From contig JARGPR010000002.1 of the NCBI GenBank assembly GCA_029210125.1, positions 18,919-82,918 of the forward strand: DNA of 64,000 nucleotides, in the 5' to 3' direction. Each line of letters begins with the position of its first letter. Positions within the stretch are counted from its first letter, which is position 1. This stretch comes from Pseudomonadales bacterium. Lineage in GTDB: Bacteria; Pseudomonadota; Gammaproteobacteria; Pseudomonadales; JAHRWD01. Both the position numbers and the translations under genes were made by a program. Below are positions 22,736 through 45,343 of the stretch, one piece after another. Below the pieces are notes generated by a model. The model did not search any database and was not told the DNA's origin. It saw only the letters and a program-made list of their open reading frames with translations.

Positions 22736-22784
22736 CTAATATCGACTTTTGTACTTACGAAACAGACACCACGAACCCAAAACT

Positions 22785-26339: not shown

Positions 26340-26481
26340 CCTCAACAAGTTCTCAATAGATAAACCTCGATCGGATGAGAATACAAAATGAAGACGAATA
26401 TCGGCCATTCGCACAGGCATGGACTACAATTTTTTATAGCTTTCACAAAAAAACACTAATGGCCGAACAAGGAATCCGTAG

Positions 26482-28765: not shown

Positions 28766-28833
28766 TTAGCAGCGGTAACCATGCATAAATTGATTATAAA
28801 AATACTGTATGAAGCAGTAAACGGAATATAAAG

Positions 28834-29139
28834 ATGAATGTAAGAAGCGTGTTTTCGCCAGATAACAACAACCTTAAAATTGAGGTGACCGGAAAGTTCG
28901 ATTACAGTCTACTCAGTAAGTTTAGAGAAGCCTATAGTGATGAAAATCACCGCGACGCCAATATCACACTGGATCTACGTGATACGACATCTATCGACAG
29001 TTCAGCATTGGGAATGCTGTTGAATATGAGGCGTTATATGGGGGATCAAACCGATAATATCGTCATAATAAACTGCAATACGAGCGTAAAGAAAATACTC
29101 ATGATTTCACGTTTTGATCAGCAGTTTTCTATCGAATGA
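28834..29139 (+). CDS. STAS-domain anti-sigma-factor antagonist (SpoIIAA/RsbV/HsbA type)
   Basis: 101 aa. 'LDLRDTTSIDSSALGMLL' retains the DSS phosphorylatable-Ser motif (codons 28996-29004). Confidence 0.8.
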   Translation: MNVRSVFSPDNNNLKIEVTGKFDYSLLSKFREAYSDENHRDANITLDLRDTTSIDSSALGMLLNMRRYMGDQTDNIVIINCNTSVKKILMISRFDQQFSIE

Positions 29140-30350: not shown

Positions 30351-30448
30351 AAACTGTACTCGACACCAGTAGATCTCTCACCTATTCTTTATCTATTACA
30401 GGGATACAATAGCTGTTGTAAAAACCGAAACAACCGAGAATTTATTGC

Positions 30449-31342: not shown

Positions 31343-31402
31343 CTGCAATACCGATTGAATTTGAGCAACGGCCATGGGTAGGTGGGATGATCAACCCAAA
31401 TC

Positions 31403-32773
31403 ATGATAGAAAAATCTGATGATCGCTATATCGTTTTCGACGGTAACCTACTACCTGGTATAAGCAAAACTGAAGCACTTGCTCAACTCCAATTACTCAC
31501 AGGCTTAAGTGAAGAGGAGCTGATCGAAGACGTATTTTCCGTTAAACCCGTCATTCTAAAAAAAACCTCGGAACCTGAACTTGCAGAACACTTTGCAGCA
31601 AGCTTTAAACAAGCAGGGTTGCAGGTAACGGCACAGCCCCACTCCCACACGCTGGAATCAGTGATAGAGGTCGACCTTCCATTCGCCTATACGCAGAATT
31701 CATCTGCTGAATCGAAATTAGAAACCAATCTTAAAAAAATATCTCTGGCCACCAGCCCGGGAGCCTCACGTAAGACCGTTGAAGGAAGTGGCTACCGGCT
31801 GATATTCGATGGCGAATGTTTAGAAAACATGGAATTGGAGGTTGTATTCAATAATCTCCAACACCTAACCTGCGCATCCAGGCAACAGGTTCAAGAGGAA
31901 CTATTTTCAGTTAAACCTTTGATCATTATTGAATCTAGTGATATCGAGGTCATTGATGAATATAAGCACGCTTACACTCAAGCGGGTTTAAGGCTACGCC
32001 AGGAAAACCCAACACCAAACCCTATCGAGTTATTTAATACCCGGCTTCGTATTCGCCACGACAAACCCGAAAAGAACCTTCGAAAGCCCTCCTACTTTAC
32101 GACCTTTGGACTCGTGTTACTGGTTGGGCTAGGATCCATGGGCTGGATACGTGCTCAAAACCAATGGATAAGCCCTTTCGCGATAAAACCCGCCGTCAAA
32201 ACAATATCGGTTAATCTCGACAACCGATCAAAAAAACAAACTATTTCAAATGAACCTGTACCGCCAAAGGTAGCATCAACTACACCTCCAGCCGTTACCT
32301 CTCCACCTGTACCCGTTCCAGAAAAGGTTCGAAAAAAACCAGTAGCGCCTATGCCTCCGGAACCCCCTAAAAAGGCCACAGCTGAAAAGCCAACAGAAAA
32401 ACCCACAGATCATCCTCCACAGCAAACCGTTGCCGAAAAAGAGCAACAACTGCAGAGGATGCAAACACAACGGGAGCAATACTCGAATCGATTGAGACTA
32501 TGGCTAGCGCAACAACAAAACTCCGCACCATCAATTAATCAAGCTGGTATGCAGGGCAAGGTAAAGCTATTGATCAAAATCGCCCGTAGCGGCGCCATTA
32601 TCAATGCAAAGGTACTCTCGATCTCAGGACCCACCGAACTAAAAAAAATCGCAATCAGTGATGCGCAAAACGCCAGCCCTTATCCCAAAATACCGCAATA
32701 CCTTCAAGGCCAAAGCTTCGCTCTTGAGGTCACCATTCGTTATCAATCATCAACAAATACAGCAGGTAACTAA
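31403..32773 (+). CDS. TonB-C-like single-pass protein with a duplicated cytoplasmic N-terminal domain
   Basis: Two ~70-aa repeats ('YIVFDGNLL...FSVKPVIL...KQAGLQV' and 'YRLIFDGECL...FSVKPLII...TQAGLRL'), TM 'YFTTFGLVLLVGLGSMGWI', a Pro/Lys-rich linker and a TonB_C-like end 'GKVKLLIKIARSGAIINAKVLSISG...ASPYPKIP'. Confidence 0.6.
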   Translation: MIEKSDDRYIVFDGNLLPGISKTEALAQLQLLTGLSEEELIEDVFSVKPVILKKTSEPELAEHFAASFKQAGLQVTAQPHSHTLESVIEVDLPFAYTQNSSAESKLETNLKKISLATSPGASRKTVEGSGYRLIFDGECLENMELEVVFNNLQHLTCASRQQVQEELFSVKPLIIIESSDIEVIDEYKHAYTQAGLRLRQENPTPNPIELFNTRLRIRHDKPEKNLRKPSYFTTFGLVLLVGLGSMGWIRAQNQWISPFAIKPAVKTISVNLDNRSKKQTISNEPVPPKVASTTPPAVTSPPVPVPEKVRKKPVAPMPPEPPKKATAEKPTEKPTDHPPQQTVAEKEQQLQRMQTQREQYSNRLRLWLAQQQNSAPSINQAGMQGKVKLLIKIARSGAIINAKVLSISGPTELKKIAISDAQNASPYPKIPQYLQGQSFALEVTIRYQSSTNTAGN

Positions 32774-33770
32774 TATCTATTCGCAATTAAAGGTTGTAGC
32801 CGCACTCACATTACTGCTGCTTTCAGAACCGGCCCTCAGCCAGTGGTATGCCTATCAACAGGCCATAATGGGCACATCTGTCAGGGTTGAGGTATGGCAT
32901 GAAAACAAAAAACAGGCTGACTCAGCCAGCAACGAAGTATTTGACGAAATGCGACGCATTGAACGCGTTATGAGTCCACTAATGACCGGCAGTGAACTGA
33001 GTAAAATCAATCTTATTGCAGCAGCAGGTCCAGTCCATATTTCCGTTGAGCTTTACCAACTACTGCGAATATCGAAACAGATCTCCGACATGAGCGGCGG
33101 TATATTTGATGTCAGCTTTTCCTCACTGGGCTATCTATATGACTTTAGGAAAGGCAAAAAACCTAGCGACCAGCAAATTGATCAATTAGTGGGAAAAATC
33201 GATTATAGGGCCATTATTCTCGACAACAAAACTCAAACTGTATCCTTTGCTCATACCGGTATGAAATTGGACCTGGGCGGCATTGCCAAGGGGTATGCGG
33301 TGGACAGGAGCATAGAAATATTAGATGAACAAGGCATTCGGCATGCCATTGTCACCGCAGGGGGTGACAGCCGCGTGCTTGGAGACCATAGAGGCAGAGA
33401 CTGGATGGTCGGTATCCAGGCACCAAGGAATCGAATCAAAGTGGCTACGGCCGTTCCACTTTCAGATGCTGCAATCTCCACCTCCGGTGATTACGAACGA
33501 TTTTTTATCGAGAAAGGTGTTCGTTTTCACCACATTATCAATCCAAAAACGGGTGATTCTGCCCGCTCACTGCAAAGTGCGTCTGTTATTGGCCCGAAAG
33601 CAACGATGACCGATGCGCTCTCCACCACTGTGTTTATATTGGGAGTAAAGCAAGGGATTGCGCTAATCGAAACGCTTGAGGGTTACGATGCCATATTGAT
33701 CGATCAAAATTCAAAAATGCATTTCAGTTCAGGGCTACAGTCAGCTTTTAGCTCACCCTCATCGAACTAA
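32658..33770 (+). CDS. apbE: FAD:protein FMN transferase ApbE (start uncertain)
   Basis: 'MGTSVRVEVW', 'LDLGGIAKGYAVD', 'AISTSGDYERFF' and 'HHIINPKTG' motifs. The only upstream ATG (32658) overlaps the preceding gene by 116 nt. Confidence 0.8.
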   Translation: MMRKTPALIPKYRNTFKAKASLLRSPFVINHQQIQQVTNIYSQLKVVAALTLLLLSEPALSQWYAYQQAIMGTSVRVEVWHENKKQADSASNEVFDEMRRIERVMSPLMTGSELSKINLIAAAGPVHISVELYQLLRISKQISDMSGGIFDVSFSSLGYLYDFRKGKKPSDQQIDQLVGKIDYRAIILDNKTQTVSFAHTGMKLDLGGIAKGYAVDRSIEILDEQGIRHAIVTAGGDSRVLGDHRGRDWMVGIQAPRNRIKVATAVPLSDAAISTSGDYERFFIEKGVRFHHIINPKTGDSARSLQSASVIGPKATMTDALSTTVFILGVKQGIALIETLEGYDAILIDQNSKMHFSSGLQSAFSSPSSN

Positions 33771-33889
33771 CAGTAAATATTAAGAATCCATCACATTAAT
33801 CACGATAAAACACTCCAAAAACCTCAACGCTAGCTAAAATTAACTGAGAATCTGCGCAATATATTGTTAATAACCCTTTCACGGGTGCT

Positions 33890-34495
33890 ATGAGGGATTT
33901 TCAAGTGACATTATCTGAATCGTACCGGTTGTGCTCAAAGCTGGTTTTGATGCTATGCCTTGCCGCTGGGCCGGCCTTTTCCTCGCCGAATCCCGAACCA
34001 TCGTCAGATTCCGGAGTTGATGCAGTCAACATAACTCCAGCAGCAATGGCGGAGCAGCCCCTTGCAGTTCAGATTGAATCCCTAAAAAAACAGTTAATCA
34101 AATTGAACCGTGATCTCTTCATTCTGGAGGAGGAACTGTTATTCCCCGCCAGCACCCAGGTTTCGGTGTTGCTTGCTGTTGATGCGGACAAAACCTTCAG
34201 CCTTGACTCGGTCAAACTCAAGATTGATGACGAGGTTGTAACCCAATATTTGTATACGAAACGCCAAATGCATGCTTTGCAACGCGGAGGCGTACAACGA
34301 CTGTACATGGGAAACCTTCGCGCAGGAGAACATGAAGTAACCGCTGTATTTATTGGGTACGGTCCCGACCAACGAGAGTATAAAAGAGCGGCGACACTCA
34401 CCTTCACTAAAGAAACTGGTCAGAAAACGATTGAATTGAAAATCTCTGCCTCCGAAGGTAGCTATCAACCTGAATTTTCAGTCATCGAGTCTTAG
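33890..34495 (+). CDS. exported hypothetical protein, first gene of the Ton/Tol-type operon
   Basis: Signal peptide 'LVLMLCLAAGPAFS', a short coiled coil, then a beta-rich C-terminal half. No recognisable family. Confidence 0.6.
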   Translation: MRDFQVTLSESYRLCSKLVLMLCLAAGPAFSSPNPEPSSDSGVDAVNITPAAMAEQPLAVQIESLKKQLIKLNRDLFILEEELLFPASTQVSVLLAVDADKTFSLDSVKLKIDDEVVTQYLYTKRQMHALQRGGVQRLYMGNLRAGEHEVTAVFIGYGPDQREYKRAATLTFTKETGQKTIELKISASEGSYQPEFSVIES

Positions 34496-34522
34496 GATAC
34501 TTCGGTAAGCAGTGACGACACC

Positions 34523-36610
34523 ATGACCTCGCCTTGTACTTCAACCTACTATTGGGCCAGACAGGCTCGTGCCTTGTTATGCCTGGTTTTGGCTCTATTT
34601 GTGCCACAAACCTGGGGCCTTGACTACATAACGCCTCAGCTTCAAGAATCAGCCATCGATCAAAATACGCTTCAGGAAACCAACAACTCAACCCAAAAAC
34701 TGCAACAGGCTTTTGGCATCGCTCTTTATGAGTTCCAGCAGGGTAACTATTTTCAGGCATTAGTAGAGATCAGTGCCGCTAACCTTCGACACCCAGTCAA
34801 TCCGAGCGATGCTAATACCAGCCAACAAGCAATGAAAACCCTTGAAGCCGGCATCATGCTGTCATACGGAATGCAGAATCACGCCAGGGATCTAATCAGT
34901 AACGTAGCCACAAAAACCTTAGGAGGTCCCCAGCAGGATCTGGCATGGTTCTATCTTGCGCAGCTTTATACAAACAAACAGGATTGGCCGCAGGCTTACC
35001 AAACCATGCAAAAAATTGGCGATCAACTACCGCCTACGCTGCACAAAAAACTAGACCAACTAAAAGCCAATATCTACATCAATAATGGCCAGATTGCCGA
35101 AGCTCAACAGCTTCTCAAAAAAAACCAGGACCCTGTATTAGGCGCGTACACCTCTTTTAATTTGGCTGCGGCAGAGCAAAAGAAACAAAATGGCAACGCT
35201 GCGTTATCGCATCTCAACAATATCATAGGGTTACCAGGCACCCAGCTGGATGTTCGATTACTTAAGGACCGCGCCCATCTTGCAGCCGCTCAATTGTATG
35301 CATCAGAACAAAATTACCCACAGGCTTTTGAGCACTTCAACCAAATCAAGATCGACAGCCCCTACTCCAGCGAAGCGCTATTTGGACAAGGGTGGGCTGC
35401 GTACCACACCGACAAACCTAGTCAGGCTCTGGCCTCCTGGAACTTGTTGCAAACCAACTACGCTTTCCACCCCCAGTCTCAAAAAACTCAAATCGCAATT
35501 CCATTTGTATATCTATCCATGGACTACCCGGACACAGCACTGCAAAAATACAGGCAGGCTGTGACCTACTATGATGAGCTGATGACTCAACTTGAGGGAG
35601 CGAAAGCTAATACCCACAACCAACACATGTTTGGTTTTATGAATAAATTTCGGACAGGTGAAGTAACCGATTGGCATTTGGAACCGGTTGAGTTTCCTGT
35701 CACCCCTGAAACCGCGCTGGTGGGCAACCTACTGGAACAACAAAATATACATGAAGAGCTCACCGCTTTAGCTGAGCTTTATCAACTGAGTTACGCAGTA
35801 AAGAAACGTCGCAACGATCTAATCTCATTTAGCTACCTGATAGAAAACAACGACCGCAATCACAAGGAAAAAGCACCGTTAATATCCGCTGAGGCTAAAA
35901 AACTACAACGCTCAAACGCTCTAATTCAAGCAAAAAACCTAAGAAAACAAATCACCAAAATCAGAAGTGATCATTCAGTTTTTTCATTGATGAATACGGA
36001 TGAGCGTGATTACGCCAAACGCATCCAACGATCCACTGAAACGCTTTCGCTAATTGATGATGTAGACAAAAAAAATGGATATGAGCGGCGCATTAAGCGA
36101 GTGGATGGAATTTTGCTGTGGAACCTTACCGAAGCATATTCAGAACGCATATGGAATGCTCAAAAAGGGCTAAAAGCAATCGAAAAATCAATAGCTTCTT
36201 CACAAAAGATACAGGGAAAACTTGAAGCCATTCTTACTCAGCATTTGACTAAGTCCGGCCCCATAACCGATAAAGTCGCTTTATTTGAACAACAACTCCA
36301 ACAGACCGCAGATAAAACCAAATACCTGATCGAACAACAGGAGCAAAAAATTCAGACTATGTTCATGCTGGCTCTTAACCAAAAACAGGAAGAAATTCGT
36401 AACTACCTGGTACACAGTCATCTCGCTATTGCGCGACTTACCGATAAGCCAAAACCAATAGCCAGTTCTAGCTCAATTTCGGATACTATCGATGATAAAA
36501 ATAGTGCTGAACCGCCTACGTCTGGAGAATTCAACCCGGTAACAAGCGCTACTAGCACAGAGCTATCACCGATGTCTGGAGCCTCGTCTACTAAGGGTTC
36601 GTTACCATGA
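34523..36610 (+). CDS. exported TPR plus coiled-coil protein
   Basis: 695 aa. Signal peptide 'LLCLVLALFVPQTWG', TPR-like helical repeats in the N-terminal half and a long coiled coil in the C-terminal half. Confidence 0.7.
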   Translation: MTSPCTSTYYWARQARALLCLVLALFVPQTWGLDYITPQLQESAIDQNTLQETNNSTQKLQQAFGIALYEFQQGNYFQALVEISAANLRHPVNPSDANTSQQAMKTLEAGIMLSYGMQNHARDLISNVATKTLGGPQQDLAWFYLAQLYTNKQDWPQAYQTMQKIGDQLPPTLHKKLDQLKANIYINNGQIAEAQQLLKKNQDPVLGAYTSFNLAAAEQKKQNGNAALSHLNNIIGLPGTQLDVRLLKDRAHLAAAQLYASEQNYPQAFEHFNQIKIDSPYSSEALFGQGWAAYHTDKPSQALASWNLLQTNYAFHPQSQKTQIAIPFVYLSMDYPDTALQKYRQAVTYYDELMTQLEGAKANTHNQHMFGFMNKFRTGEVTDWHLEPVEFPVTPETALVGNLLEQQNIHEELTALAELYQLSYAVKKRRNDLISFSYLIENNDRNHKEKAPLISAEAKKLQRSNALIQAKNLRKQITKIRSDHSVFSLMNTDERDYAKRIQRSTETLSLIDDVDKKNGYERRIKRVDGILLWNLTEAYSERIWNAQKGLKAIEKSIASSQKIQGKLEAILTQHLTKSGPITDKVALFEQQLQQTADKTKYLIEQQEQKIQTMFMLALNQKQEEIRNYLVHSHLAIARLTDKPKPIASSSSISDTIDDKNSAEPPTSGEFNPVTSATSTELSPMSGASSTKGSLP

Positions 36611-39576
36611 ATAAATATCGCCGGTATTTATTCATTTGCCTGATGGGCCTTTCAGCGTGCTCAGTATTCGAGCGCAAACAGGAGGTCACTACCGATACCC
36701 TTGCCAGTCTATTGCTACAAAATGCGAGCCCGCAGACAGATGCACCGCAATTACCAGTAAAATTGCCCAGATCGCAGCCGCTGCCCGTAACCACACACGA
36801 GGATATTGTTACTAACTATCAACGACTCCTGACACTGGCAAAGGACCCGTTGGTCATTGTTAATATGCAGCAGCGGCTGGCCGAGCTTGAGATGATAAAA
36901 AGTGAACAACTGGATTCAAATCTGGAAATTCAAGACACCAAATCATCTGAGCAGAAAAGCACGATTGAACCCAGTAAACACCCATCAAACAGTCTGGCTA
37001 AAGTGGCTACGCCATCGGCCCCACTTACACCGTCTGACAAGCCCTACGACAGCAGTTTTTACACCAAAACCATCGAAGCCTATGTCGCACTGCTGGATAC
37101 CTACCCAGACCGGCCTGACAACGATGAAATACTATATCAGCTCTCAAAAGCCTATGAACTGGACACCCAGCTTGAAGAGGCAATCGAAACCCTTACTCGG
37201 CTAACCGAGAACTTCCCGGATTCGAAACATTGGGTCGAAGCACAATTTCGTATCGCCGAATTTTTATTTTCTGATCTGCAATACCATCGGGCAGAACAGG
37301 CCTACCTATCGGTAGTGGAGAACGAAAACACTTCGAGCATGTATCAAAATTCGCTCTACATGCTAGGCTGGAGTCGCTTCAAACAGGAGCATTTTGATTC
37401 GGCCCTCGAAGCTTTCATTTCATTTCTGGATCATCGTTTTACAGGCCAGATACCCCCCGCTTCAATTGATCCAAACAAACAACAACAGCTAAGCGATGTA
37501 CTCAGAGTCATGAGCTGGATTTTCACTGAGCGAGGTGGGCCAAAATCTATTGCCAGCCTGTTGAATAATACCCGTGCGCGGGCCTATGAGCATCTCCTGT
37601 ACAGTCGCTTAGCAGGGGAATATCTGGCCAAGAGCCGCTATATCGACGCAGCCAATAGCTACCAGGCATACATTGAAAAACATCCGGCTAATCAATACGC
37701 TGCCATCTATTCCGGTTTAAAAGTGGATGCCTATCTGAGCGGTTCTTTTTTGGAGTTAGCGTTTAGGGAAAAAATCTCCTTTGTCGCCAAATATGGTTTT
37801 GTAGCCGCCACTCAAGCCATAAACCCAGGAGTGGGCAACGGACAGGAAGATACCCAAACCAGACTTAAGCAATATGTGCACGAACTGGCTACCCATTACC
37901 ATGCGTTGGCCCAAAAGACGGATGATAAACAAAAAAGTAACGCTCATTATTTGCAAGCCATAAATTACTATCAACAGTTCGTTAGGTTATTCCCATCGGA
38001 TCAGGCCACACCTGCCGCCTACTACTATTTGGCTGAAACACTCAATAAAACAGGCCAGTACCCTCTAGCGATACAGGCCTATGAGCAATCGGCCTATCAA
38101 TACCCGGCCGAAGAACATTCCGCCAATGCTGGTTACGGCGCGATTCATAGTTATAGAAAGCTGTTGGCATCGATACCAAAAGAACAGGAGACGCAGCGCG
38201 AGCAAATCAGCAATCAAAAAATTGAATCACAGATTCGGTTTACTGAAAAATTCAGCGATGATGCCCGAGTTGCTGCGGTACTGACTAAAACCATCGAAGA
38301 ATTATTTTCAAAAAATAGCTACCAGTCAGCAATCGATACCGCAACGCGATTGTTCTCATTACCTCAAGAAAGAACTACGCGATCACAGCTAGATATTTCA
38401 CGTAGAGTTGTCGCCCACAGCTTGTTCGAACTGAAAAATTATCCCGAAGCAGAAATCGCTTACCTTAACTTAAGAGAAGTTAGCACACCCAAAAGCAGAG
38501 ATTACAAAACTCTCAATGAGCGCTTTGCAGCATCGATATATAAGCAGGCTGAACAGGCAATGGCGCTAGAAGAACCCCAGCGGGCAATCCATCATTTTAT
38601 GAGGATCATTAAGCTCGCACCGGACTCAACCATCCGTACCTCGGCTCAGTACGATGCAATTGTGCAAATGGTCGCAACCAAACAGTGGGCAGCGGCAACC
38701 GATCAAATAGTGGATTTTCGCAGACGCTTCCCAAAAAGCTCACTCAATGCCAATACCCCTCATTTACTGATCACCGCTTTACAAAAGCTTGAACGCTGGC
38801 CTGATGCGGCGGATGAACTGGTTAAACTTTCTATATCATCGGAACTGGCGGATGAAAAACGCACGACACTATTTTTGGCAGCCCAGACCTATGAGAAAGC
38901 AAAAGACATCGCTCAGTCGATTCGCTATTACAAAAAATATGCCCACGCATACCCAATGCCACTGGATGACGCACTGGAATCACGACATAGGCTGGAACAG
39001 CTTTACTTGGCAATGGGGGAAGATTCGAAAAGGCGCTACTGGCTAAACAAGATTATCAAATTAGACAGTTCAGCGAAGACAACCGAACGAACTGATCGCT
39101 CTCGATATTTGGCCGCACAGGCATCACTGGTGTTTGCTGAAGATGCACGGATTGGTTTTGAACAAATTAGACTCAAGTTGCCGATCAACAAATCCCTCAG
39201 CAAAAAGAAAAAATCTTTCGATAAAGCAATCAATCGATATAACCGAGTATTGAGTTATCAGATTGCAGAATTCACGACCGTAGCCAACTTTAAAATGGGC
39301 GCTATTTACCAGCAATTAAGCGCTGATTTAATCGACTCGCAAAGGCCAGCGAATCTTAATGAACTTGAGCTGGAGCAGTATGAAATGTTGCTTGAAGAAC
39401 AGGCTTATCCCTTCGAGGAGGAAGCGATCGCCATTCACGAAACCAATGCCCAGCGATCCTGGATCGGCATCTACGATAAGGGGGTTCAACGCAGTTTTGA
39501 TTCATTGTCCGAGCTACTGCCCGCCCGCTATAACAAACATGAGGCAGTCATAATTTACAGCGATGAAATTCTTTAA
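36607..39576 (+). CDS. large TPR-repeat lipoprotein
   Basis: 989 aa. Lipobox 'LMGLSACS' and many TPR/YbgF-like repeats (e.g. 'YQLSKAYELDTQLEEAIETLTRLTENFPDS'). ATGA overlap with the upstream gene. Confidence 0.75.
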   Translation: MNKYRRYLFICLMGLSACSVFERKQEVTTDTLASLLLQNASPQTDAPQLPVKLPRSQPLPVTTHEDIVTNYQRLLTLAKDPLVIVNMQQRLAELEMIKSEQLDSNLEIQDTKSSEQKSTIEPSKHPSNSLAKVATPSAPLTPSDKPYDSSFYTKTIEAYVALLDTYPDRPDNDEILYQLSKAYELDTQLEEAIETLTRLTENFPDSKHWVEAQFRIAEFLFSDLQYHRAEQAYLSVVENENTSSMYQNSLYMLGWSRFKQEHFDSALEAFISFLDHRFTGQIPPASIDPNKQQQLSDVLRVMSWIFTERGGPKSIASLLNNTRARAYEHLLYSRLAGEYLAKSRYIDAANSYQAYIEKHPANQYAAIYSGLKVDAYLSGSFLELAFREKISFVAKYGFVAATQAINPGVGNGQEDTQTRLKQYVHELATHYHALAQKTDDKQKSNAHYLQAINYYQQFVRLFPSDQATPAAYYYLAETLNKTGQYPLAIQAYEQSAYQYPAEEHSANAGYGAIHSYRKLLASIPKEQETQREQISNQKIESQIRFTEKFSDDARVAAVLTKTIEELFSKNSYQSAIDTATRLFSLPQERTTRSQLDISRRVVAHSLFELKNYPEAEIAYLNLREVSTPKSRDYKTLNERFAASIYKQAEQAMALEEPQRAIHHFMRIIKLAPDSTIRTSAQYDAIVQMVATKQWAAATDQIVDFRRRFPKSSLNANTPHLLITALQKLERWPDAADELVKLSISSELADEKRTTLFLAAQTYEKAKDIAQSIRYYKKYAHAYPMPLDDALESRHRLEQLYLAMGEDSKRRYWLNKIIKLDSSAKTTERTDRSRYLAAQASLVFAEDARIGFEQIRLKLPINKSLSKKKKSFDKAINRYNRVLSYQIAEFTTVANFKMGAIYQQLSADLIDSQRPANLNELELEQYEMLLEEQAYPFEEEAIAIHETNAQRSWIGIYDKGVQRSFDSLSELLPARYNKHEAVIIYSDEIL

Positions 39577-40270
39577 TTATCTTCTAAATTGCCTTAAAAA
39601 CTGCTTTATAAGTAGTCGCTCCACTAACCGAGCCACGGCTACTGTAGCGACTACCATGACTCTAGTTCTGGCCGCTTGCACTGCCCAACAGCAGCAACCT
39701 GATATGCCAACCTCAAGTAATACGGCTGGTAATGTAGAAAGGGCTATTCCCAAAGCACTTAAAACACGATACCAAACCGCTATAACGCAGTTACAAAATG
39801 AACAAATCGAACTAGCATCCCAGGGATTTCGTGCCTTAACTATTGATTATCCCACCTACTCCGGAGCCTACATAAACCTTGGCCTCATTGAGTTGAAAAG
39901 AAAACAAACCGACGAAGCCGAAAACCTATTTAGACAGGCTATATCAGTAAACCCAGAAAGTTTTTCCGGTCATCATCAGCTTGCAATTTTATATCGGAAA
40001 AAAGGCCAGTTCGACCAGGCTGAGAGTCACTATTTACACGCCATAAAAATTGATCCGAGCAGCCCCGAAGTTCATCGAAACCTGGCGATTTTATACGACC
40101 TATATATGGGAAAGCTGACTCAGGCCCTGACACTTTATCAGACTTATCAAAGCCTGCTGCCTGAACCAGACCCTGTATTAAAGGGCTGGATTATTGACAT
40201 AAAAAATCGAATCAAAGCTCAAAACAAAAACCCTGATAAAAATATAGATAGTGCAATCACAGAAAACTAA
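39563..40270 (+). CDS. TPR-repeat lipoprotein
   Basis: 235 aa. Lipobox 'LVLAACT' and three to four canonical TPRs ('AYINLGLIELKRKQTDEAENLFRQAISVNPES...'). 14-nt overlap with the upstream gene. Confidence 0.75.
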   Translation: MKFFNYLLNCLKNCFISSRSTNRATATVATTMTLVLAACTAQQQQPDMPTSSNTAGNVERAIPKALKTRYQTAITQLQNEQIELASQGFRALTIDYPTYSGAYINLGLIELKRKQTDEAENLFRQAISVNPESFSGHHQLAILYRKKGQFDQAESHYLHAIKIDPSSPEVHRNLAILYDLYMGKLTQALTLYQTYQSLLPEPDPVLKGWIIDIKNRIKAQNKNPDKNIDSAITEN

Positions 40271-40340
40271 TTAGCCGCTTTTCATTCGCACCCACATCTC
40301 TTCAAAAGTAGATATGGACTCAAAACCAGGACATTTCAAT

Positions 40341-40649
40341 ATGCGCTCCCTACCCCTAGCCAGCTTCCTGATCTTCGCTTTTACTCTGATGTTCGGCAGC
40401 CAAGCATTGATTGCCGAAGAAAAGCTAATACAGCTCGAAAGCTCAAAAATCCTTGGTAATGAAGAGCAGCCCGGAATTATGTATATCGTGCCCTGGGGAC
40501 AGCCCAAAAGGTCGGATTTTTTATCGGAGTCGACGGTTCCGATCGTAAACATTGACGCAGTTCTCAAACCTGTCACCCCTCAGTCCATAGCTCGAGAATT
40601 GAACTATTATAAAAAAGTACAACTTTTGAGCAGCGCAAAATCCCGTTGA
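40341..40649 (+). CDS. small exported hypothetical protein
   Basis: 102 aa starting at ATG 40341. Signal peptide 'MRSLPLASFLIFAFTLMFGSQALIA'. No family recognised. Confidence 0.5.
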   Translation: MRSLPLASFLIFAFTLMFGSQALIAEEKLIQLESSKILGNEEQPGIMYIVPWGQPKRSDFLSESTVPIVNIDAVLKPVTPQSIARELNYYKKVQLLSSAKSR

Positions 40650-40686
40650 TTGGTAGCTGCCTTATAACTTTTTCGAGACTTTGGCT

Positions 40687-41355
40687 ATGGATATCTACAA
40701 TACAATTGTGCGGTTTTTTCAAGATGGAGGGCTTTTTATGTATCCCATCGCGGTGGTGCTGACCTTTGGGCTTGCCATTGCGTTAGAGCGCTATCTATTT
40801 TTGACCAAAGCAAAGATCACAAATCGAAAGGCATTCAACGAGCTGATGCCATTACTGAAAAAAAAGGAATATAACACTGCCCATCAAGTAGCGCGTTCGA
40901 TTAAAGCACCCCTCGCCGACATCATCGCCGCGGGTCTATTCCGAACCACCCAAAGTCCAAGACGCGAAGATGTAGAATATGCAATGGAAGAGAGTGTAAT
41001 GGAGGCGTTACCACCACTTGAAAAGCGTACCCAATACCTCGCAACCCTGGCCAACGTCGCAACCTTACTAGGTTTGCTTGGCACCATCATCGGCCTAATT
41101 GCAGCATTTACTGCGGTGGCCAATGCCGACCCATCGGAAAAAGCATCGCTACTATCCCAAAGTATCTCGGTCGCCATGAACACCACTGCCTTTGGACTCA
41201 TTACGGCTATTCCACTGTTACTAACCCACGCGCTCCTTCAAACTAAAACGGCCGAAATTGTCGATGGCTTTGAAATGGCGGGAGTCAAGTTCATGAATAT
41301 CCTCTCGGGTACTCGTATCACTCCAGCTCAAACTCGCACTACTGACAACAGCTAA
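40687..41355 (+). CDS. MotA/TolQ/ExbB-family proton channel subunit
   Basis: Three TMS. 'LATLANVATLLGLLGTIIGLIAAF' and 'ISVAMNTTAFGLITAIPLLL' are typical of TolQ/ExbB. Confidence 0.9.
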   Translation: MDIYNTIVRFFQDGGLFMYPIAVVLTFGLAIALERYLFLTKAKITNRKAFNELMPLLKKKEYNTAHQVARSIKAPLADIIAAGLFRTTQSPRREDVEYAMEESVMEALPPLEKRTQYLATLANVATLLGLLGTIIGLIAAFTAVANADPSEKASLLSQSISVAMNTTAFGLITAIPLLLTHALLQTKTAEIVDGFEMAGVKFMNILSGTRITPAQTRTTDNS

Positions 41356-41891
41356 TGTTTACTACAAAACAAAATCGCCATGATCGACATCAGGATGCGG
41401 AGCTCGATATTACTGCGTTCATGAACCTGATGATCGTATTGGTACCGGTATTGTTGCTCGGTATGGTATTTTCTCAAATTACCGTGATTGAGTTAAAACT
41501 GCCCCGCTCTGCTATAGCTGCAGAACAAGCCGGTGAAGAACGCCAGCTAGAAGTGGTGATCCTTACAGATGCGCTCCGAGTAAACTATCCCGAAGGCGTG
41601 TTGCTTCGTGAAATTCCCAAAAAAGATGGAGTTCAGGATGTAAAAACATTATCTATATTTCTACAGCAGGTAAAACGGCAACTCAGCGAAAAAGGCATTC
41701 AAAAAAAGAATATTTCCCTGTTGTCGATGGAATCCACGACCTATCAGGAAATTGTATCGGTCATGGATAGCGTACGTTCCTTTCAAGCGGTTATAGCCGC
41801 GTCTGTGGTAAATGCAGAGCTATTCCCTGAGATAGCCCTGGGCGATGCACCTTCTGAATTACCCCATATAGCGAGTTCAAATACCCCGTGA
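41355..41891 (+). CDS. ExbD/TolR-family protein 1
   Basis: 'LDITAFMNLMIVLVPVLLL' N-terminal TM signature followed by a periplasmic domain. TAATG coupling to the ExbB-like gene. Confidence 0.85.
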   Translation: MFTTKQNRHDRHQDAELDITAFMNLMIVLVPVLLLGMVFSQITVIELKLPRSAIAAEQAGEERQLEVVILTDALRVNYPEGVLLREIPKKDGVQDVKTLSIFLQQVKRQLSEKGIQKKNISLLSMESTTYQEIVSVMDSVRSFQAVIAASVVNAELFPEIALGDAPSELPHIASSNTP

Positions 41892-42400
41892 AACAATCAG
41901 TTCGCGCCAAAAGGATGAATAAACGACTGCGTAAAATGAAAGGCAGTCCAACGCTCAACCTGGTCTCATTGATGGATATTTTTACCATTCTGGTTTTCTT
42001 TTTGATGGTCAATTCATCAGATGTCGAGATACTTCAGCAGAATGACTCGATCAAATTACCGGAATCCGTCGCAGAACGTAGACCGAGAGAAAACATCATG
42101 ATTCTAGTCAATGATAAGGAGATCATTGTGCAGGGACGCAAGGTAGTCAACGTCGATGAAATCAGCAGACGCGATGAAACGATCGCAGCACTGACCAGCG
42201 AGCTGAGCCATCATGCTTCACGCTCAACAGTTACCAATCAAGACACACCAGAACATGCGGTCACCATCATGGGTAATCACAACATACCCTATCAGCTATT
42301 AAAACAGGTCATGACAACCTGCGCTGACGCGAATTACACCGACATCTCTCTAGCGGTCACCAAAACCGCGAACAAATCATCCGTCGCGCCCGAGGTATAA
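41888..42400 (+). CDS. ExbD/TolR-family protein 2
   Basis: 'LNLVSLMDIFTILVFFLMV' signature. A GTG start overlaps the upstream TGA (GTGA). An in-frame ATG 9 codons downstream (41915) is an alternative start. Confidence 0.85.
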   Translation: MKQSVRAKRMNKRLRKMKGSPTLNLVSLMDIFTILVFFLMVNSSDVEILQQNDSIKLPESVAERRPRENIMILVNDKEIIVQGRKVVNVDEISRRDETIAALTSELSHHASRSTVTNQDTPEHAVTIMGNHNIPYQLLKQVMTTCADANYTDISLAVTKTANKSSVAPEV

Positions 42401-42404
42401 CACC

Positions 42405-43364
42405 TTGTCAACTAGCGCTTATTCACACGAAACATCTATGTCATGGTCCTCAACCGCCGGCGGTGACCCCCAGTTTCGCAAAATACTGATCGGACTATTT
42501 GTTCTGTTACTGGCGATCAGTATCGTAATCCCGCTTGTGAGCGTCCCCGAAATAAAACGTGAACAGGCCGAAAAACTACCGGAGCATCTCGCACGAGTCA
42601 TTATCAAACGAAAAAAACTGGCACCACCCCCCCCACCAAAGGTTGTAGCCAAGAAACCGGATGAAAAACCCAAAAAGCTAAAAGAGATCAAACCAAAAGA
42701 AGCTCCCATAAAGAAAGTAGAAACCGTTAAAAAAGTAGCTAAACCTGTACAGACGGTAGCTCAGGCTAAAAAGAAAGCCGCCACATCGGGCCTGTTGGCT
42801 TTTCAGGATGACCTGCTGGCGATGCGCCAACAAATTAAGCCATCGCAGCTTTCCAATCAACGCTTGAGCAATTCCGGAGCCAAAGTTGCTAAAAAAACAC
42901 GCACTTTAATTGGTGCAAAACAACTGAAAGGCAGCGGTGGCATTCGTACAGCCAATCTGAGTCGCGATACGGGTCATACTTCGCTTTCTGCACACCAAAG
43001 CACCGAGATGGTAAGTGAGATTCAATCTTCGAACGCAAGTCAACTTGCTAAAAATGAACTTGAGGATGCGATTAAGTCTAGAAGTATTGAAGAAGTCAGA
43101 AGAATATTTGATCGTAACAAGGGCGCGATCTACGCACTGTACAACAGAGCCATTCGAAAAAATCCAGGCCTTCAGGGCAAAGTAGTACTGGAGCTTGTAA
43201 TTGAACCTTCAGGGATTGTATCTACCTGTCAAATTGTCAGCAGCGAGCTAAACCACAAAAAACTTGAACGCAAACTCATCACTCGAATCAAGATGTTTTC
43301 ATTCGGTGAAAAGGATGTCAGTGTGACGCGAGTAAATTACCCTATCGAATTTTTGCCATCGTAA
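42405..43364 (+). CDS. TonB-like energy-transducer protein with an AgmX/PglI-type C-terminal domain
   Basis: Single TM 'ILIGLFVLLLAISIVIPLV', a Lys/Pro-rich linker ('KKLAPPPPPKVVAKKPDEKPKK') and a TonB_C-like end 'LQGKVVLELVIEPSGIVSTCQIVSS...VNYPIEF'. The start (TTG 42405 or ATG 42438) is uncertain. Confidence 0.7.
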   Translation: MSTSAYSHETSMSWSSTAGGDPQFRKILIGLFVLLLAISIVIPLVSVPEIKREQAEKLPEHLARVIIKRKKLAPPPPPKVVAKKPDEKPKKLKEIKPKEAPIKKVETVKKVAKPVQTVAQAKKKAATSGLLAFQDDLLAMRQQIKPSQLSNQRLSNSGAKVAKKTRTLIGAKQLKGSGGIRTANLSRDTGHTSLSAHQSTEMVSEIQSSNASQLAKNELEDAIKSRSIEEVRRIFDRNKGAIYALYNRAIRKNPGLQGKVVLELVIEPSGIVSTCQIVSSELNHKKLERKLITRIKMFSFGEKDVSVTRVNYPIEFLPS

Positions 43365-43398
43365 CTTTATTAATAACTCTCTTAACAACTTCTCAAAT

Positions 43399-43450
43399 AA
43401 AAAAGGGGTGGTGAATTCAACAATATGCTGAATTCACCACCCCTTCTTAT
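43399..43450. terminator. strong bidirectional rho-independent terminator
   Basis: AAGGGGTGGTGAATTC (43403-43418) and GAATTCACCACCCCTT (43430-43445) form a perfect 16-bp stem. It is flanked by an A-run upstream and a T-rich stretch downstream, between convergent genes. Confidence 0.85.
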
Positions 43451-43483
43451 TTAGTATTTCAGCCGCTACTTGATCCGCTATTT

Positions 43484-43876
43484 TCACAGCAGCTTCATCA
43501 CCAGCGCGACGCACAGCGCTAACCCGAAAACATAGGTTCCCAGCGCACCAAGCAACCTCATTGGGTTGGGTTTGGCCATTGTTTCTGGAAAAATCAGACC
43601 AGCAACAATTAGATACCGGGAAAAGGTCACCAAACCCATACTCCAGATCACCCATGTTGATGGATAGGTGGTGCCTAATACAAAAATCAGAATCGCCAGC
43701 ATCGGCGCAAATTCAACCGTATTACCGTGGGCGCGCATTGCTTTATTGAGTACATTATCCGGGGCGTCGATACCTCCAGTAATGGTCTCTGTTTTACCTC
43801 GACAGATCGAAACGTATAAACCTAGAACAAGGACTAAAAAACCTAACAACGCAATACATATCAATGCTACCTTCAT
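43484..43876 (-). CDS. MAPEG-family membrane protein (YecN-like)
   Basis: 130 aa from ATG 43876. 'MRAHGNTVEFAPMLAILIF' matches the MAPEG 'R.H.N..E..P' motif. The 188-aa track ORF is an upstream extension. Confidence 0.75.
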   Translation of the reverse strand: MKVALICIALLGFLVLVLGLYVSICRGKTETITGGIDAPDNVLNKAMRAHGNTVEFAPMLAILIFVLGTTYPSTWVIWSMGLVTFSRYLIVAGLIFPETMAKPNPMRLLGALGTYVFGLALCVALVMKLL

Positions 43877-44632
43877 ACTGTCACCTTTTATTATTTGTCG
43901 CAGTTTCGGATAATAATTGCATTTGGTCAGGGGGAAGCTCACTGCTAGAGTCGGCGCTTCGCGCGACCAAAAGATAAAGCTCCGATGAGCTATAACCAGC
44001 CGGCCGAGAGCGAACGATACCAGATTTACAGCCGGAAAAAAGCCAGACATTCACAGGTAGACATTCCTCTACCATCAGTCGAGGGCTATGCCGCAACACT
44101 GGTCTGAGTGGTTACCGCCCCGAGCAGCCACAAAAGCAGCCGGATGTCCGGCGTCATACACTTTATCGATAGTCTCTTTATGCCTTGTACAAAAGGGGAT
44201 CGTCCTGATGCTTTACTACAAGGTGCAAGCAACCTCGCCTTCCTTGAGCTATTTAGCCAGAGTACAGACGATGGCGTCTTCACCGTAGAATACTGCGCAA
44301 CCGGCCGTTTGCGGACTCGTGGAAAGTGAAAAGGATGTATTGCCGATCCATAATTCGATTCATCAACAGAAGGTGTGAATCAATCGGTTACAGCAATCGC
44401 CCCGTAGATAAACCCAGAATAAAAATACCAGCGACAAATGGTATCGACGCTACAGCTGTTAGGTGCCGGATGACTGGGAGTGTTTTGTTTCGATACCGCA
44501 GCCCATGAAAAATGGGATGCCATTTTCTGGTAAGTTCGCTTGATTTTTGAGACGGTACCTGAGGTTCCCCAATAAAACGGATGATTTAATTATTCATCGA
44601 TTTATGTTCAAACTATACGGGTGTTGCGCAGA

Positions 44633-44809
44633 CTAGAAACGTATCTCGCCTCTTTTACTCATGCTGCAACGTAAGCCATTTTCCCTGAGTTGTTGCTGAT
44701 AAGTGCAGGATGCGTAAGTACTGCCCTGATCTGAATGCAGGATCACATTAAATGCCTCGAGCTTAAACTCATTGGAGTAAGTTTTGTAGGGCTTTCTTTT
44801 TGATGTCAT
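44633..44809 (-). pseudogene. internally deleted IS3-family transposase relic
   Basis: A 58-codon ORF, MTSKRKPYKTYSNEFKLEA|FNVILHSDQGSTYASCTYQQQLRENGLRCSMSKRGEIRF*. It joins an OrfA-type N-terminus directly to the 'HSDQGSxY...SMSxxG' part of the OrfB DDE core, then stops. Confidence 0.65.
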
Positions 44810-44879
44810 TAGAACACTCCTTTTAAAAGCAATCGCCTCTCGCTAAAAAGCGTCCGTTGAACTGGGGGAGGTTCAGTCA
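44810..44879 (-). mobile_element. putative left end of the IS3-family relic
   Basis: On the minus strand, TGACTGAACCTCCCCCAGTTCAACGG starts at 44879, about 70 nt upstream of the orfA-like ATG. It begins with the TG typical of IS3-family terminal repeats. I could not find the partner end. Confidence 0.35.
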
Positions 44880-44983
44880 AAGGTGAGCTAATATTTTTTG
44901 CCTTGTTCTGCTTCTGATCATCCTTGGATTCAAATAAGTGTGTTTCACCTAAAGCAGCTATTTAGATGTAATTTGCATATGAT

Positions 44984-45304
44984 TTATAGCGTATCAAAAC
45001 TGCCCGCTGTTAAAACCGGTAATATCCAGTAGCGCACGGCTGCACTTGCACATACTGGCTTGAGCGCCGTTAGAACAGTTGCTGTTTCATCACTGTCCAG
45101 GAATATTTCAAAGCGGTGAAATTTCCGATAGCCTTCCACTTGTTCCCGAATATCGAACTGACTATGTTCACGGCTGTAGCCGTTAATTTCGCTAAGGCTA
45201 AAACCAGATAATTGTGATAATCCCATCAGTTGATCAACAATATCATCTTTAATTTCATTTGGCGCAATGAGTATCAATTGCTCGCTTTTACTTTTATTTA
45301 TCAT
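44984..45304 (-). CDS. small PII-like protein (DUF3240 type) downstream of the CzcA-like gene
   Basis: 106-aa ORF directly after the HME-RND pump gene. The size and position fit the DUF3240 family. Assigned from memory of that family. Confidence 0.55.
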   Translation of the reverse strand: MINKSKSEQLILIAPNEIKDDIVDQLMGLSQLSGFSLSEINGYSREHSQFDIREQVEGYRKFHRFEIFLDSDETATVLTALKPVCASAAVRYWILPVLTAGSFDTL

Positions 45305-45343
45305 GCTTATTTTCCAATCATATTCCGTTCGTGTGGCTTTTGG

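Follow-up and report, generated by a model that had tools for sequence, protein, structure and literature searches.

The window, that is, the whole stretch of 64 kb of DNA that was analysed, contains a cluster of nine open reading frames (ORFs) that occupy positions 33890-43364 of the plus strand and are called g1 to g9 here. An earlier note on this DNA had counted ten genes, but the ORF table gives nine and the note's own list also totals nine; ten would require the inclusion of the ApbE gene upstream. The four junctions given in that note agree with the coordinates, namely ATGA between g2 and g3 (36607-36610), a 14-nt overlap of g3 and g4 (39563-39576), TAATG between g6 and g7 (41353-41357) and GTGA between g7 and g8 (41888-41891), and the g2/g3, g3/g4 and g7/g8 overlaps were found again in the related loci inspected. 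Luciano et al. (2011, PLoS Genet) reported clusters of this type from marine bacteria that do not glide. When 80 related genome loci were fetched, the nine-gene order was kept in essentially all of the sufficiently long ones, and the synteny spans many gammaproteobacterial families; the arrangement is therefore not due to chance. Wherever a related locus is long enough to include both, TPR and motor genes are linked, and the missing linkage that would have spoken against the earlier interpretation was not seen.

Upstream of g1, at a distance of 119 nt, lies a gene for ApbE (FAD:protein FMN transferase; 32868-33770, plus strand; Pfam ApbE, 270.9 bits), for which the identical public contig has a gene call of 300 aa. 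Of the 62 related loci reaching g1, 45 have an ApbE gene next to the cluster and on its strand, placed before g1 or immediately behind g9. ApbE is a conserved neighbour that may be co-transcribed with the cluster; its membership in the machine is not proven, and no literature description of an ApbE gene beside such clusters was found. Across lineages, the flanks of the 80 loci share no gene family other than ApbE and, at some loci, a redoxin or a single uncharacterised protein; the conserved neighbours include neither an outer-membrane barrel or secretin nor a gene for polysaccharide synthesis or a variable cargo. Downstream, a bidirectional intrinsic terminator hairpin (43403-43445) separates g9 from a convergent MAPEG gene (-31.2 kcal/mol, z = -8.4). 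The perfect terminator proposed for the end of the run is thus a real hairpin, but its perfect stem has 17 bp instead of 16, and it also serves the convergent gene, with the better T-run on the minus strand, downstream of MAPEG. Every ORF of at least 600 aa in the window is something else than a TonB-dependent receptor, which agrees with the absence of such receptors claimed for the 64 kb, and no receptor-sized gene family is common to the cluster flanks surveyed. The window also encodes FeoB, a TonB-independent iron transporter (10436-12691), and a separate bona fide TonB_C protein 1 kb upstream of the cluster.

The motor subunits and the transducer

The profile-HMM searches recommended in the earlier note, run against Pfam and NCBIfam, returned MotA_ExbB in g6, ExbD in both g7 and g8, an AgmX/PglI end in g9 and TPR in g3 and g4, so that the proposed set of one MotA/TolQ/ExbB and two ExbD/TolR subunits is confirmed. 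The AglR-like g6 (40681-41355, 224 aa) is a proton-channel subunit of the TolQ/ExbB/MotA family, presumably a pentamer by analogy, with 98.4 bits against MotA_ExbB (PF01618); against PDB entries it scored 33.7 bits for TolQ, 30.8 for ExbB and 20 for MotA. Its Thr135 is invariant, while Asn167 and Thr168 are conserved in 76 and 74 of 77 sequences, respectively. The first TolR/ExbD-like subunit, g7 (41355-41891, 178 aa), is in the AglQ position and matches ExbD (PF02472) with 39.5 bits. It lacks the channel Asp: an Asn occupies the column of TolR D23, ExbD D25 and MotB D32, and the 78 orthologues include 70 with N, 6 with S and 1 with D there. This Asn might mean a non-channel role for g7, and no literature description was found of such a replacement of the essential channel Asp in one TolR-like subunit. 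The second, g8 (41888-42400, 170 aa; 59.8 bits against PF02472), is in the AglS position and keeps the channel Asp, as Asp30 in the TolR D23 column is present in 78/78 orthologues.

It was found that g6-g8 score far under every TolQ, TolR, ExbB and ExbD equivalog cut-off of the NCBI models. The score of g6 is 61.6 bits for TolQ (cut-off 221) and 44.9 bits for ExbB (cut-off 206), and the TolR model score of the cluster is 34.9 (cut-off 127). All three are also more distant from E. coli TolQ/ExbB and TolR/ExbD than these are from each other. These scores and distances speak against a nesting inside the canonical ExbBD proteins, which had been named as an argument against the earlier interpretation.

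The last gene, g9 (42405-43364, 319 aa), encodes a GltG-like single-pass force transducer with a short cytoplasmic tip of only about 20 residues that has no FHA domains, one transmembrane (TM) helix, a Pro/Lys linker, a conserved periplasmic block (residues 120-205) and a TonB-fold C-terminal domain. This protein scores 69.5 bits against the AgmX/PglI C-terminal domain (NF033768; cut-off 40), yet it is under both TonB cut-offs, with 22.0 bits for TonB_C (24.6) and 24.9 bits for TIGR01352 (27.1). Residues 228-316 were modelled with a pLDDT of about 90, and the best matches of this domain in the PDB come exclusively from the C-terminal domains of TonB, HasB and FusB. The Lys/Pro-rich linker and the TonB-C-like, AgmX/PglI-type end read earlier from the sequence thus hold, the linker being visible and the TonB fold predicted. 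In the orthologue alignment, the TM helix has neither a conserved His nor an SHLS motif.

Scaffold and small exported proteins

As read off the translated sequences, the N-termini of g1, g2 and g5 look like signal peptides. The GltC-like g2 (34523-36610, 695 aa), found in 61 loci, had been described as an exported TPR protein; its N-terminus agrees with export, but its TPR matches (residues 129-288) are weak. Its position and size fit the proteins equated with MXAN_2541 in Table S3 of Luciano et al. (550-692 aa). The large GltD-like TPR lipoprotein g3 (36607-39576, 989 aa), presumed to be the central scaffold, matches TPR_6 and TPR_16 with 62 bits each and YbgF/CpoB-type repeats with 86.2 bits, below the cut-off of 90.1; by sequence, its repeats appear to be of the CpoB/BamD type. 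Its size fits the MXAN_4870 homologues in the same table (933-1016 aa). The small GltE-like TPR lipoprotein g4 (39563-40270, 235 aa) has strong TPR matches, but the GltE model gave merely 43 bits against a cut-off of 225, no better than the scores of other TPR families; its size fits the short proteins equated with MXAN_4869 (162-263 aa), which are in the same position in each cluster. The lipoboxes reported earlier, LSAC in g3 and LAAC in g4, are both present, and 46/70 and 60/72 orthologues, respectively, have a lipobox.

The first gene, g1 (33890-34495), has the 201 aa ascribed to it and an apparent export signal, after which a single long helix and an Ig-like beta-sandwich are predicted. 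Neither Pfam nor NCBIfam gave a family above its cut-off, the one sub-threshold match being to Miff (17.1 vs 23 bits). The AlphaFold2 model has a pLDDT of 82, with the helix at 58-84 and the sandwich at 90-200 (about 95), and the PDB comparison gave no specific fold match. This protein occurs in 62 loci with 33-91% identity, as the first gene of the cluster each time. Its 2190 homologues carry the NCBI name 'AraC family transcriptional regulator', which is a mis-naming. We conclude that g1 is a ninth conserved member, absent from the published core-complex list, and no description of it was found in the literature on such clusters.

The small exported protein g5 (40314 or 40341 to 40649, 111 or 102 aa; we use the start at 40341) is the 'additional gene' of the gammaproteobacterial core complex, and its position is that of the locus tag skipped in Table S3 of Luciano et al. 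(for example, CJA_3316 and Sde_2958). The Pfam/NCBIfam searches gave no family for it. It was found in 70 loci, and there are 99 cluster representatives at E <= 0.001. A near-invariant motif, G-N-x-E-x-P-x-[VI]-[LM]-Y-[IV]-[VL]-P-W, whose G, P, P and W are present in 71/71 sequences, has no literature description that we could find.

Proposed mechanism and rival explanations

The cluster is a typical example of the Agl/Glt 'core complex' that Luciano et al. (2011) described in gammaproteobacteria, with a one-for-one fit of gene order and protein sizes to their Table S3. Homology to AglRQS and GltCDE is suggested by that work together with the synteny and the NCBIfam GltG/AgmX models. The earlier interpretation, an Agl/Glt-like envelope machine driven by the proton-motive force and not an uptake energiser, is supported by this order and these sizes, the AgmX/PglI domain and the TPR-motor linkage. 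Since g9 passes the AgmX/PglI model and fails the TonB models, the motor is far below its cut-offs and no receptor is linked, nutrient uptake is an unlikely rival.

We consider a stand-alone Agl/Glt-type core complex with a Tol-Pal-like output to be the best explanation, and quite a probable one. Gene order, conserved residues and family assignments are what the analysis shows. The stoichiometry, contacts and output that we infer start from a proton channel in the inner membrane, of the 5:2 class to which TolQR, ExbBD and MotAB belong, which would be wired to an outer-membrane-anchored TPR scaffold. By analogy with the AglR5-AglQ-AglS assembly in an AlphaFold model of the Myxococcus machine, a g6 pentamer would surround a g7-g8 heterodimer in which g8 alone carries the proton-binding Asp. 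Proton flow would cause conformational work in g9, with its Pro/Lys-rich linker spanning the periplasm. As the GltG periplasmic segment wraps GltD in the Myxococcus model, the g9 periplasmic block and C-terminal domain may dock onto g3, which may also hold g4 and g2 in the way that GltD holds GltE and GltC. The small secreted proteins g5 and g1 would be adaptors, and g5 probably adds its invariant strand motif to the beta-sheet of the g9 domain in the manner of a TonB box, or of the GltF strand modelled on the GltG C-terminal domain. As output, the outer-membrane lipoprotein scaffold would be pulled or repositioned with energy from the motor and would thereby act on a general component of the envelope. 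A Tol-Pal-like role was chosen because the conserved neighbourhood has no genes for cargo, receptors or polymers, and it is a guess; nutrient import and motility are not favoured. The core-complex model gives no explanation for the ApbE linkage.

Suggestions in the field for the core cluster are a basal transport machine or protein secretion. The motor-transducer-TPR assembly would then carry a specific cargo, such as an exopolymer, a lipoprotein or a surface protein, through the envelope or along it, as precedented by Agl-Nfs with the spore-coat polymer and Agl-Glt with the CglB adhesin, and the conserved exported g1 and g5 could themselves be cargo or serve as its adaptors. We regard this as rather unlikely, as the 80 loci have no conserved barrel, secretin, polysaccharide-synthesis or variable cargo gene alongside and the g1 fold offers no specific lead. 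A gliding or surface-motility motor like Myxococcus Agl-Glt would have the AglRQS-type motor, the GltG-type domain and the GltC/D/E-like TPR proteins in common with the cluster. Nevertheless, it is very improbable here: no Group A component (GltA, B, F, H, I, J, K) is in the cluster or its flanks, the cytoplasmic tip of g9 has no FHA domains for coupling to a cytoskeletal track, core genes alone are insufficient for motility (Luciano et al. 2011), and gliding is not known in most hosts.

We give equally little credence to a specialised Ton system like tonB-exbB-exbD1-exbD2 of Xanthomonas, energising receptors encoded elsewhere for nutrient uptake, even though an ExbB-family protein, two ExbD-family proteins and a TonB-fold domain are all present and the separate TonB_C protein is nearby. 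Besides the model scores of g9 and its TM helix without the His/SHLS motif, g6-g8 are farther from ExbBD than TolQR is, the three TPR genes are always linked, and receptor-sized genes are otherwise assigned in the window and not shared by the flanks surveyed. Moreover, a Teredinibacter turnerae mutant without the four canonical tonB genes does not grow on low iron or cellulose, although this organism has two such clusters (Luciano et al. 2011, Table S3). The GltG-like proteins thus do not stand in for TonB, contrary to what the earlier note would have taken as evidence against its idea, and the Ton-system explanation is already largely refuted.

Comparison with known systems

When compared to Ton (ExbB-ExbD-TonB), the cluster has the same superfamilies, a TonB-fold C-terminal domain and two ExbD paralogues as in Xanthomonas, but its transducer gene is last and not first, its transducer fails the TonB_C cut-offs and has no TM-helix His motif, and in the loci surveyed it is always TPR-linked and never receptor-linked. 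Tol-Pal (TolQRA-TolB-Pal-CpoB) is similar in its 5:2-type TolQ/TolR-family motor, its inner-membrane transducer with a TonB/TolA-like C-terminal fold, its CpoB/YbgF-like TPR repeats (86 bits in g3) and its outer-membrane lipoprotein partners. However, the cluster has no TolB or Pal, two different TolR-like subunits, a Pro/Lys linker in place of the long TolA helix, and TolQ/TolR scores far below the cut-offs. Clusters of the PVC group and Bacteroidetes, made up of TPR, tolQ-like, two tolR-like and vWA-transducer genes (Mol Biol Evol 2025, msaf138), also have a TPR gene, one TolQ-like subunit, an unlike TolR-like pair and a membrane-tethered transducer; their transducer has a vWA end and keeps the SHLS/His motor-binding motif, whereas g9 has a TonB-fold AgmX/PglI end and no such motif.

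The Agl-Glt and Agl-Nfs machines of Myxococcus xanthus have in common with the cluster one TolQ-like and two TolR-like motor subunits, the AgmX/PglI-type TonB-fold transducer end, GltD/GltE-type TPR lipoproteins and a GltC-type TPR protein. The cluster differs in that it lacks outer-membrane barrels as well as a cytoplasmic platform (GltA, B, H, K, I, J, AglZ), and g9, with 319 aa and no FHA domains, is much shorter than the Myxococcus GltG of 650 aa. Both AglQ and AglS carry the membrane Asp according to a review, whereas g7 has Asn. There is no reported Myxococcus counterpart of g1, and g5 corresponds to GltF in position at most. The core clusters of Luciano et al. (for instance CJA_3312-3319 of Cellvibrio japonicus and Sde_2954-2961 of Saccharophagus degradans) have GltC-, GltD- and GltE-like genes, a small extra gene, AglR-, AglQ- and AglS-like genes and a GltG-like gene, as here. 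For example, the protein sizes are 652/963/248/118/226/182/171/330 aa at the Cellvibrio fibrivorans locus among the related loci fetched and 660/964/244/-/231/181/173/323 aa in Cellvibrio japonicus (CJA_3319-3312). Their tables list seven homologues and their text one extra gene, whereas in our loci g1 is equally conserved and ApbE is usually adjacent; in essence, the present cluster is the same as theirs.

Gene content and published relatives of the cluster

The studied cluster lies on the plus strand at 33890-43364, and our ORF table gives nine tightly packed genes there where the earlier note had counted ten. It starts with g1 (33890-34495, 201 aa), followed by the GltC-, GltD- and GltE-like TPR genes g2 (34523-36610, 695 aa), g3 (36607-39576, 989 aa) and g4 (39563-40270, 235 aa), the small gene g5 (40341-40649, 102 aa, or 111 aa if the start is 40314), the AglR-, AglQ- and AglS-like motor genes g6 (40681-41355, 224 aa), g7 (41355-41891, 178 aa) and g8 (41888-42400, 170 aa), and the GltG-like transducer gene g9 (42405-43364, 319 aa). 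The gene calls on the identical DNA in the public assembly are essentially the same. The four overlaps or abutments between genes that had been noticed earlier are borne out by these coordinates, and the related genomes inspected show them too.

A hairpin at 43403-43445 (-31.2 kcal/mol, z = -8.4) separates g9 from a convergent MAPEG gene. Its stem is perfect, as had been claimed, and measures 17 bp; the stronger T-run is on the minus strand, and the hairpin is therefore a bidirectional terminator. A search for regulatory RNA in and around the operon gave no Rfam match within 30000-45000. Convergent genes lie downstream (43484-50753, -): besides the MAPEG-family membrane protein they encode a DUF3240 protein, which precedes an RND efflux operon with a 1026-aa ACR_tran pump, and near 44.6 kb there is a short integrase (rve) remnant.

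The motor and transducer proteins belong to known families. g6 is a MotA/TolQ/ExbB channel protein (PF01618, 98 bits), g7 and g8 each match the ExbD/TolR family (PF02472), and g9 scores above the NCBI model of the AgmX/PglI C-terminal domain (NF033768, 69.5 bits, cut-off 40) and is matched by the GltG model over model positions 556-643 (E = 6e-10). Among the TPR proteins, g3 and g4 carry lipoboxes, so that these two partners of the motor are lipoproteins, a feature of GltD and GltE; the TPR matches of g2 are weak. In the family-model scan g2 and g3 matched no Glt model, and g4 reached 43 bits with the GltE model (cut-off 225), no better than with PilW or PrsT. For g3, TIGR02795 (CpoB/YbgF-type TPR) gave 86.2 bits over three stretches, just below the cut-off of 90.1. 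There was no Pfam match for g5 and a single sub-threshold one for g1 (Miff, 17.1 versus 23 bits).

The core complex of Luciano et al. (2011) is made up of homologues of aglR, aglQ, aglS, gltC, gltD, gltE and gltG plus one additional gene. Its genes cluster together in gammaproteobacteria, in one betaproteobacterium and in Geobacter and Fibrobacter, and it was assigned no function; the clusters of Cellvibrio, Saccharophagus and similar organisms were placed in the Myxococcus clade. Read from g9 back to g2, the order and sizes of our ORFs are those of the Table S3 entries of that paper for seven gammaproteobacteria (Cellvibrio japonicus, Saccharophagus, Teredinibacter, Hahella, Marinobacter, Shewanella frigidimarina and Thioalkalivibrio). 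The GltG-like proteins there are mostly 321-334 aa (535 aa in Thioalkalivibrio), the AglS-like 162-185 aa, the AglQ-like 168-188 aa, the AglR-like 205-272 aa, the GltE-like 162-263 aa, the GltD-like 933-1016 aa and the GltC-like 550-692 aa, with the extra gene appearing as a skipped locus tag. Likewise, the Cellvibrio fibrivorans locus L049, one of the loci we compared, agrees in its protein sizes with CJA_3312-3319, the published cluster of C. japonicus. As in the core complex, the gltC-, gltD- and gltE-like genes, the small extra gene and the aglR-, aglQ-, aglS- and gltG-like genes follow each other on one strand, and one TolQ-like subunit (g6) is accompanied by two unlike TolR-like subunits (g7 and g8). 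The transducer g9 has the GltG/AgmX(PglI)-type C-terminal domain, the single transmembrane helix and the Pro-rich linker. The window cluster is a further example of the kind of core complex described in 2011, and the earlier finding is correct; its reading as an Agl/Glt-like envelope machine is supported, as gene order and sizes fit the published complex and the AgmX/PglI model is passed.

Conservation and neighbourhood

When genomes were scanned with aligned g9 homologues, more than 530 species representatives proved to encode a relative; a protein search gave 4078 g9 homologue clusters. We compared the best 80 loci of the scan, nearly all of which are labelled gammaproteobacterial. Every locus on a sufficiently long contig carries the nine genes in the same order on the same strand; the ORF counts, from g9 down to g1, are 80, 79, 77, 76, 70, 71, 69, 61 and 62. 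The hosts include Cellvibrionales, Microbulbifer, Halieaceae and Spongiibacteraceae, and also Thiodiazotropha and Sedimenticolaceae symbionts, Chromatiales and Acidiferrobacterales.

The first gene is as conserved as the motor genes (33-91% identity, 62 loci) and has 2190 homologues, one of which, from an uncultured Pseudomonadales-type gammaproteobacterial MAG, is 99% identical; the window itself comes from an uncultured bacterium of this type. It is not in Table S3, and Luciano et al. (2011) name only one additional gene. The machine has nine conserved parts, not eight. Among the best 120 matches (P0121-P0240), NCBI labels g1 homologues as "AraC family transcriptional regulator" or "Miff domain-containing protein". 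The structural model predicts that g1 has a signal peptide and a single long helix, together with an Ig-like beta-sandwich that is modelled confidently, and since an exported protein of this build does not suit either name, we take both to be propagated annotation errors. Its fold search returned only generic Ig/CBM/transthyretin-like matches, none with E <= 0.001. The orthologue alignment of g5 contains a near-invariant motif, G-N-x-E-x-P-x-[VI]-[LM]-Y-[IV]-[VL]-P-W. This gene occupies the position of gltF in Myxococcus, which makes the motif a candidate docking strand.

In the 10-kb flanks of the 80 loci, ApbE is the only gene family that recurs beside the cluster across lineages. Of the 62 loci that extend to g1, 45 have an ApbE flavin-transferase gene next to the cluster and on its strand (32868-33770, +, in the window). 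Most lineages have it upstream of g1; in the group of Thiodiazotropha and Sedimenticolaceae it immediately follows g9. A ResA/TlpA-like redoxin is nearby in 19 loci, usually between ApbE and g1. A flavinylation target within the cluster was rejected: the motif [S/T][GS]A[ST] is not conserved in any of g1-g9 (62-81 orthologues each), and the family search found no FMN_bind domain in them. Such clusters do not feature in a survey of ApbE-linked systems, and the ApbE neighbour is an unexplained lead. The membership of g1, the g5 motif and the ApbE adjacency are details that we did not find in the literature consulted.

One could go further and suppose a unit of ten genes with ApbE, joined in many genomes by the TlpA/ResA-like thiol oxidoreductase, whose machine would need or deliver a flavinylated or redox-active envelope component without the known [S/T]GA[S/T] motif, and whose motor would have as its axle an obligate heterodimer of an Asp and an Asn subunit, with only one site for proton binding. 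We consider this combined proposal very improbable. If it were true, a Tol-like motor would be linked to redox chemistry outside the cytoplasm, a coupling that is previously undescribed.

Several other neighbours were recorded. A 540-600 aa protein with a twin-arginine-like signal lies upstream of g1 or ApbE in 18 loci (L002, L003, L013, L022, L037, L047, L059, L068 and others); it belongs to no family in Pfam or NCBIfam, and the window lacks it. Upstream in the window are an exported LolA_like protein (30449-31342, +; PF17131, also matching DUF1329 and MucB/RseB) and, just after it, a 456-aa protein (31403-32773, +) whose end is a genuine TonB_C domain (34.4 bits). The latter also has a linker rich in Pro, and its N-terminal cytoplasmic part holds a module of about 70 aa in two tandem copies. 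Both proteins were rejected as cluster members because they are not kept beside the cluster elsewhere; a LolA_like homologue occurs only in locus L061, about 8 kb downstream of the cluster. Farther upstream lies a signalling block (19619-30350, +), a partner-switching module. It encodes hybrid histidine kinases of 1038 and 1196 aa, both rich in PAS domains, and two response regulators, one with an HD-GYP-type domain and the other fused to a PP2C (SpoIIE) phosphatase, as well as an MCP-signal and a STAS protein.

Channel residues and transducer

The two TolR-like subunits, whose orthologues are found in 77 of 80 loci for g7 and 79 of 80 for g8, are not alike at the channel position. Aligned with TolR, ExbD and MotB of E. 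coli, all g8 orthologues (78/78) have Asp in the column of the essential membrane Asp, whereas those of g7 have Asn in 70, Ser in 6 and Asp in 1 of 78. This pattern suggests that the gammaproteobacterial motor has one proton-binding site per axle, as it seems from the aligned sequences. According to a review, AglQ and AglS of Myxococcus both carry the membrane Asp. We did not find the g7/g8 pattern described in the literature consulted; it marks Asp30 of g8 as the residue to mutate, with g7 as a natural Asn variant.

For g9, the alignment and the model place about 20 residues before the single transmembrane helix, and the AlphaFold2 model is confident only at this helix and at residues 228-316 (the latter with pLDDT of about 90). 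A conserved block at about residues 120-205 lies between the Pro/Lys linker and the C-terminal domain. The sequence of g9 gave nothing significant against PDB. The best PDB fold matches of residues 228-316 are all C-terminal domains of TonB, HasB or FusB, the top one being 6sly, also reported as a match for Myxococcus GltJ. Therefore the "TonB-C-like end" proposed for g9 holds at the level of the fold.

Possible outputs and comparison with known systems

A role in nutrient uptake, as in a Xanthomonas-type Ton system, would fit this fold and the ExbD/TolR matches, but it is unlikely, given that no receptors are linked to the cluster and its proteins do not reach the cut-offs of the TonB, ExbB and ExbD models. 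g9 stays below both TonB models (PF03544, 22.0 bits against 24.6; TIGR01352, 24.9 against 27.1), and the motor scores are 44.9 bits against 206 for ExbB, 21.7 against 123 for ExbD_2, 61.6 against 221 for TolQ and 34.9 against 127 for TolR. Compared with the E. coli proteins, g6 scores 44 bits with each of TolQ and ExbB, which score about 100 bits with each other; g8 barely matches ExbD, g7 matches nothing, and g9 had no significant TonB match there or in PDB. TonB, TolA and vWA transducers keep an SHLS/His motor-binding motif that g9 does not have, and His is not among the commonest residues at any position of its transmembrane helix (81 sequences). The earlier note saw no TonB-dependent receptor, and every ORF of at least 600 aa in the window is assigned to something else; the flanks of the related loci share no receptor-sized gene family. 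Iron uptake is represented in the window by a FeoB ferrous-iron transporter gene (10436-12691, -), which is TonB-independent and so does not contradict the earlier statement on Ton-linked genes. T. turnerae has two such clusters (Luciano et al. 2011, Table S3), and a strain without its four canonical tonB genes does not use ferric turnerbactin or cellulose, from which we infer that GltG-like proteins are no substitute for TonB. Zorya or another motor-based defence was also rejected, as the ten proteins (g1-g9 and ApbE) have no match in PADLOC-DB.

Motility, the output of the gliding machine of Myxococcus, is unlikely as well. The Group A components of that machine (GltA, B, F, H, I, J and K) are absent from the nine proteins in the family scan, with no recurring candidates in the flanks, and the cytoplasmic FHA domains of GltG (residues 1-114 and 190-329), which couple it to the motor and the cytoplasmic platform, have no counterpart in the 20 or so residues of g9. 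The main rival is a basal transport or secretion role, suggested by Myxococcus groups. We favour a Tol-Pal-like action, in which the machine would act on a general envelope component, because neither cargo nor receptor genes accompany the cluster. It is not a Tol system itself: in the family scan none of the nine proteins is a TolB or Pal, and TolQ and TolR score as given above. Keyword searches, and twelve locus tags from six published gamma- and betaproteobacterial clusters, led to no study of what the gammaproteobacterial clusters do.

In the published AlphaFold model of the Myxococcus machine, an AglR pentamer surrounds an AglQ-AglS heterodimer, the periplasmic segment of GltG wraps the GltD pillar with GltE and GltC on GltD, and a GltF strand pairs with the beta-sheet of the GltG domain. 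If this architecture is transferred to the window cluster by analogy, the motor would have 5:2 stoichiometry, g9 would dock on g3, and g5 and g1 may serve as adaptors; the output proposed here is likewise inferred. The window cluster adds no function, and the comparison sharpens experiments on an old open question. The core complex is common, is present in culturable and genetically tractable Cellvibrio, Microbulbifer and Saccharophagus, and is one of the few widespread proton-driven envelope motors without a known job; it is presumed to be the ancestor of the Myxococcus gliding and spore-coat machines.
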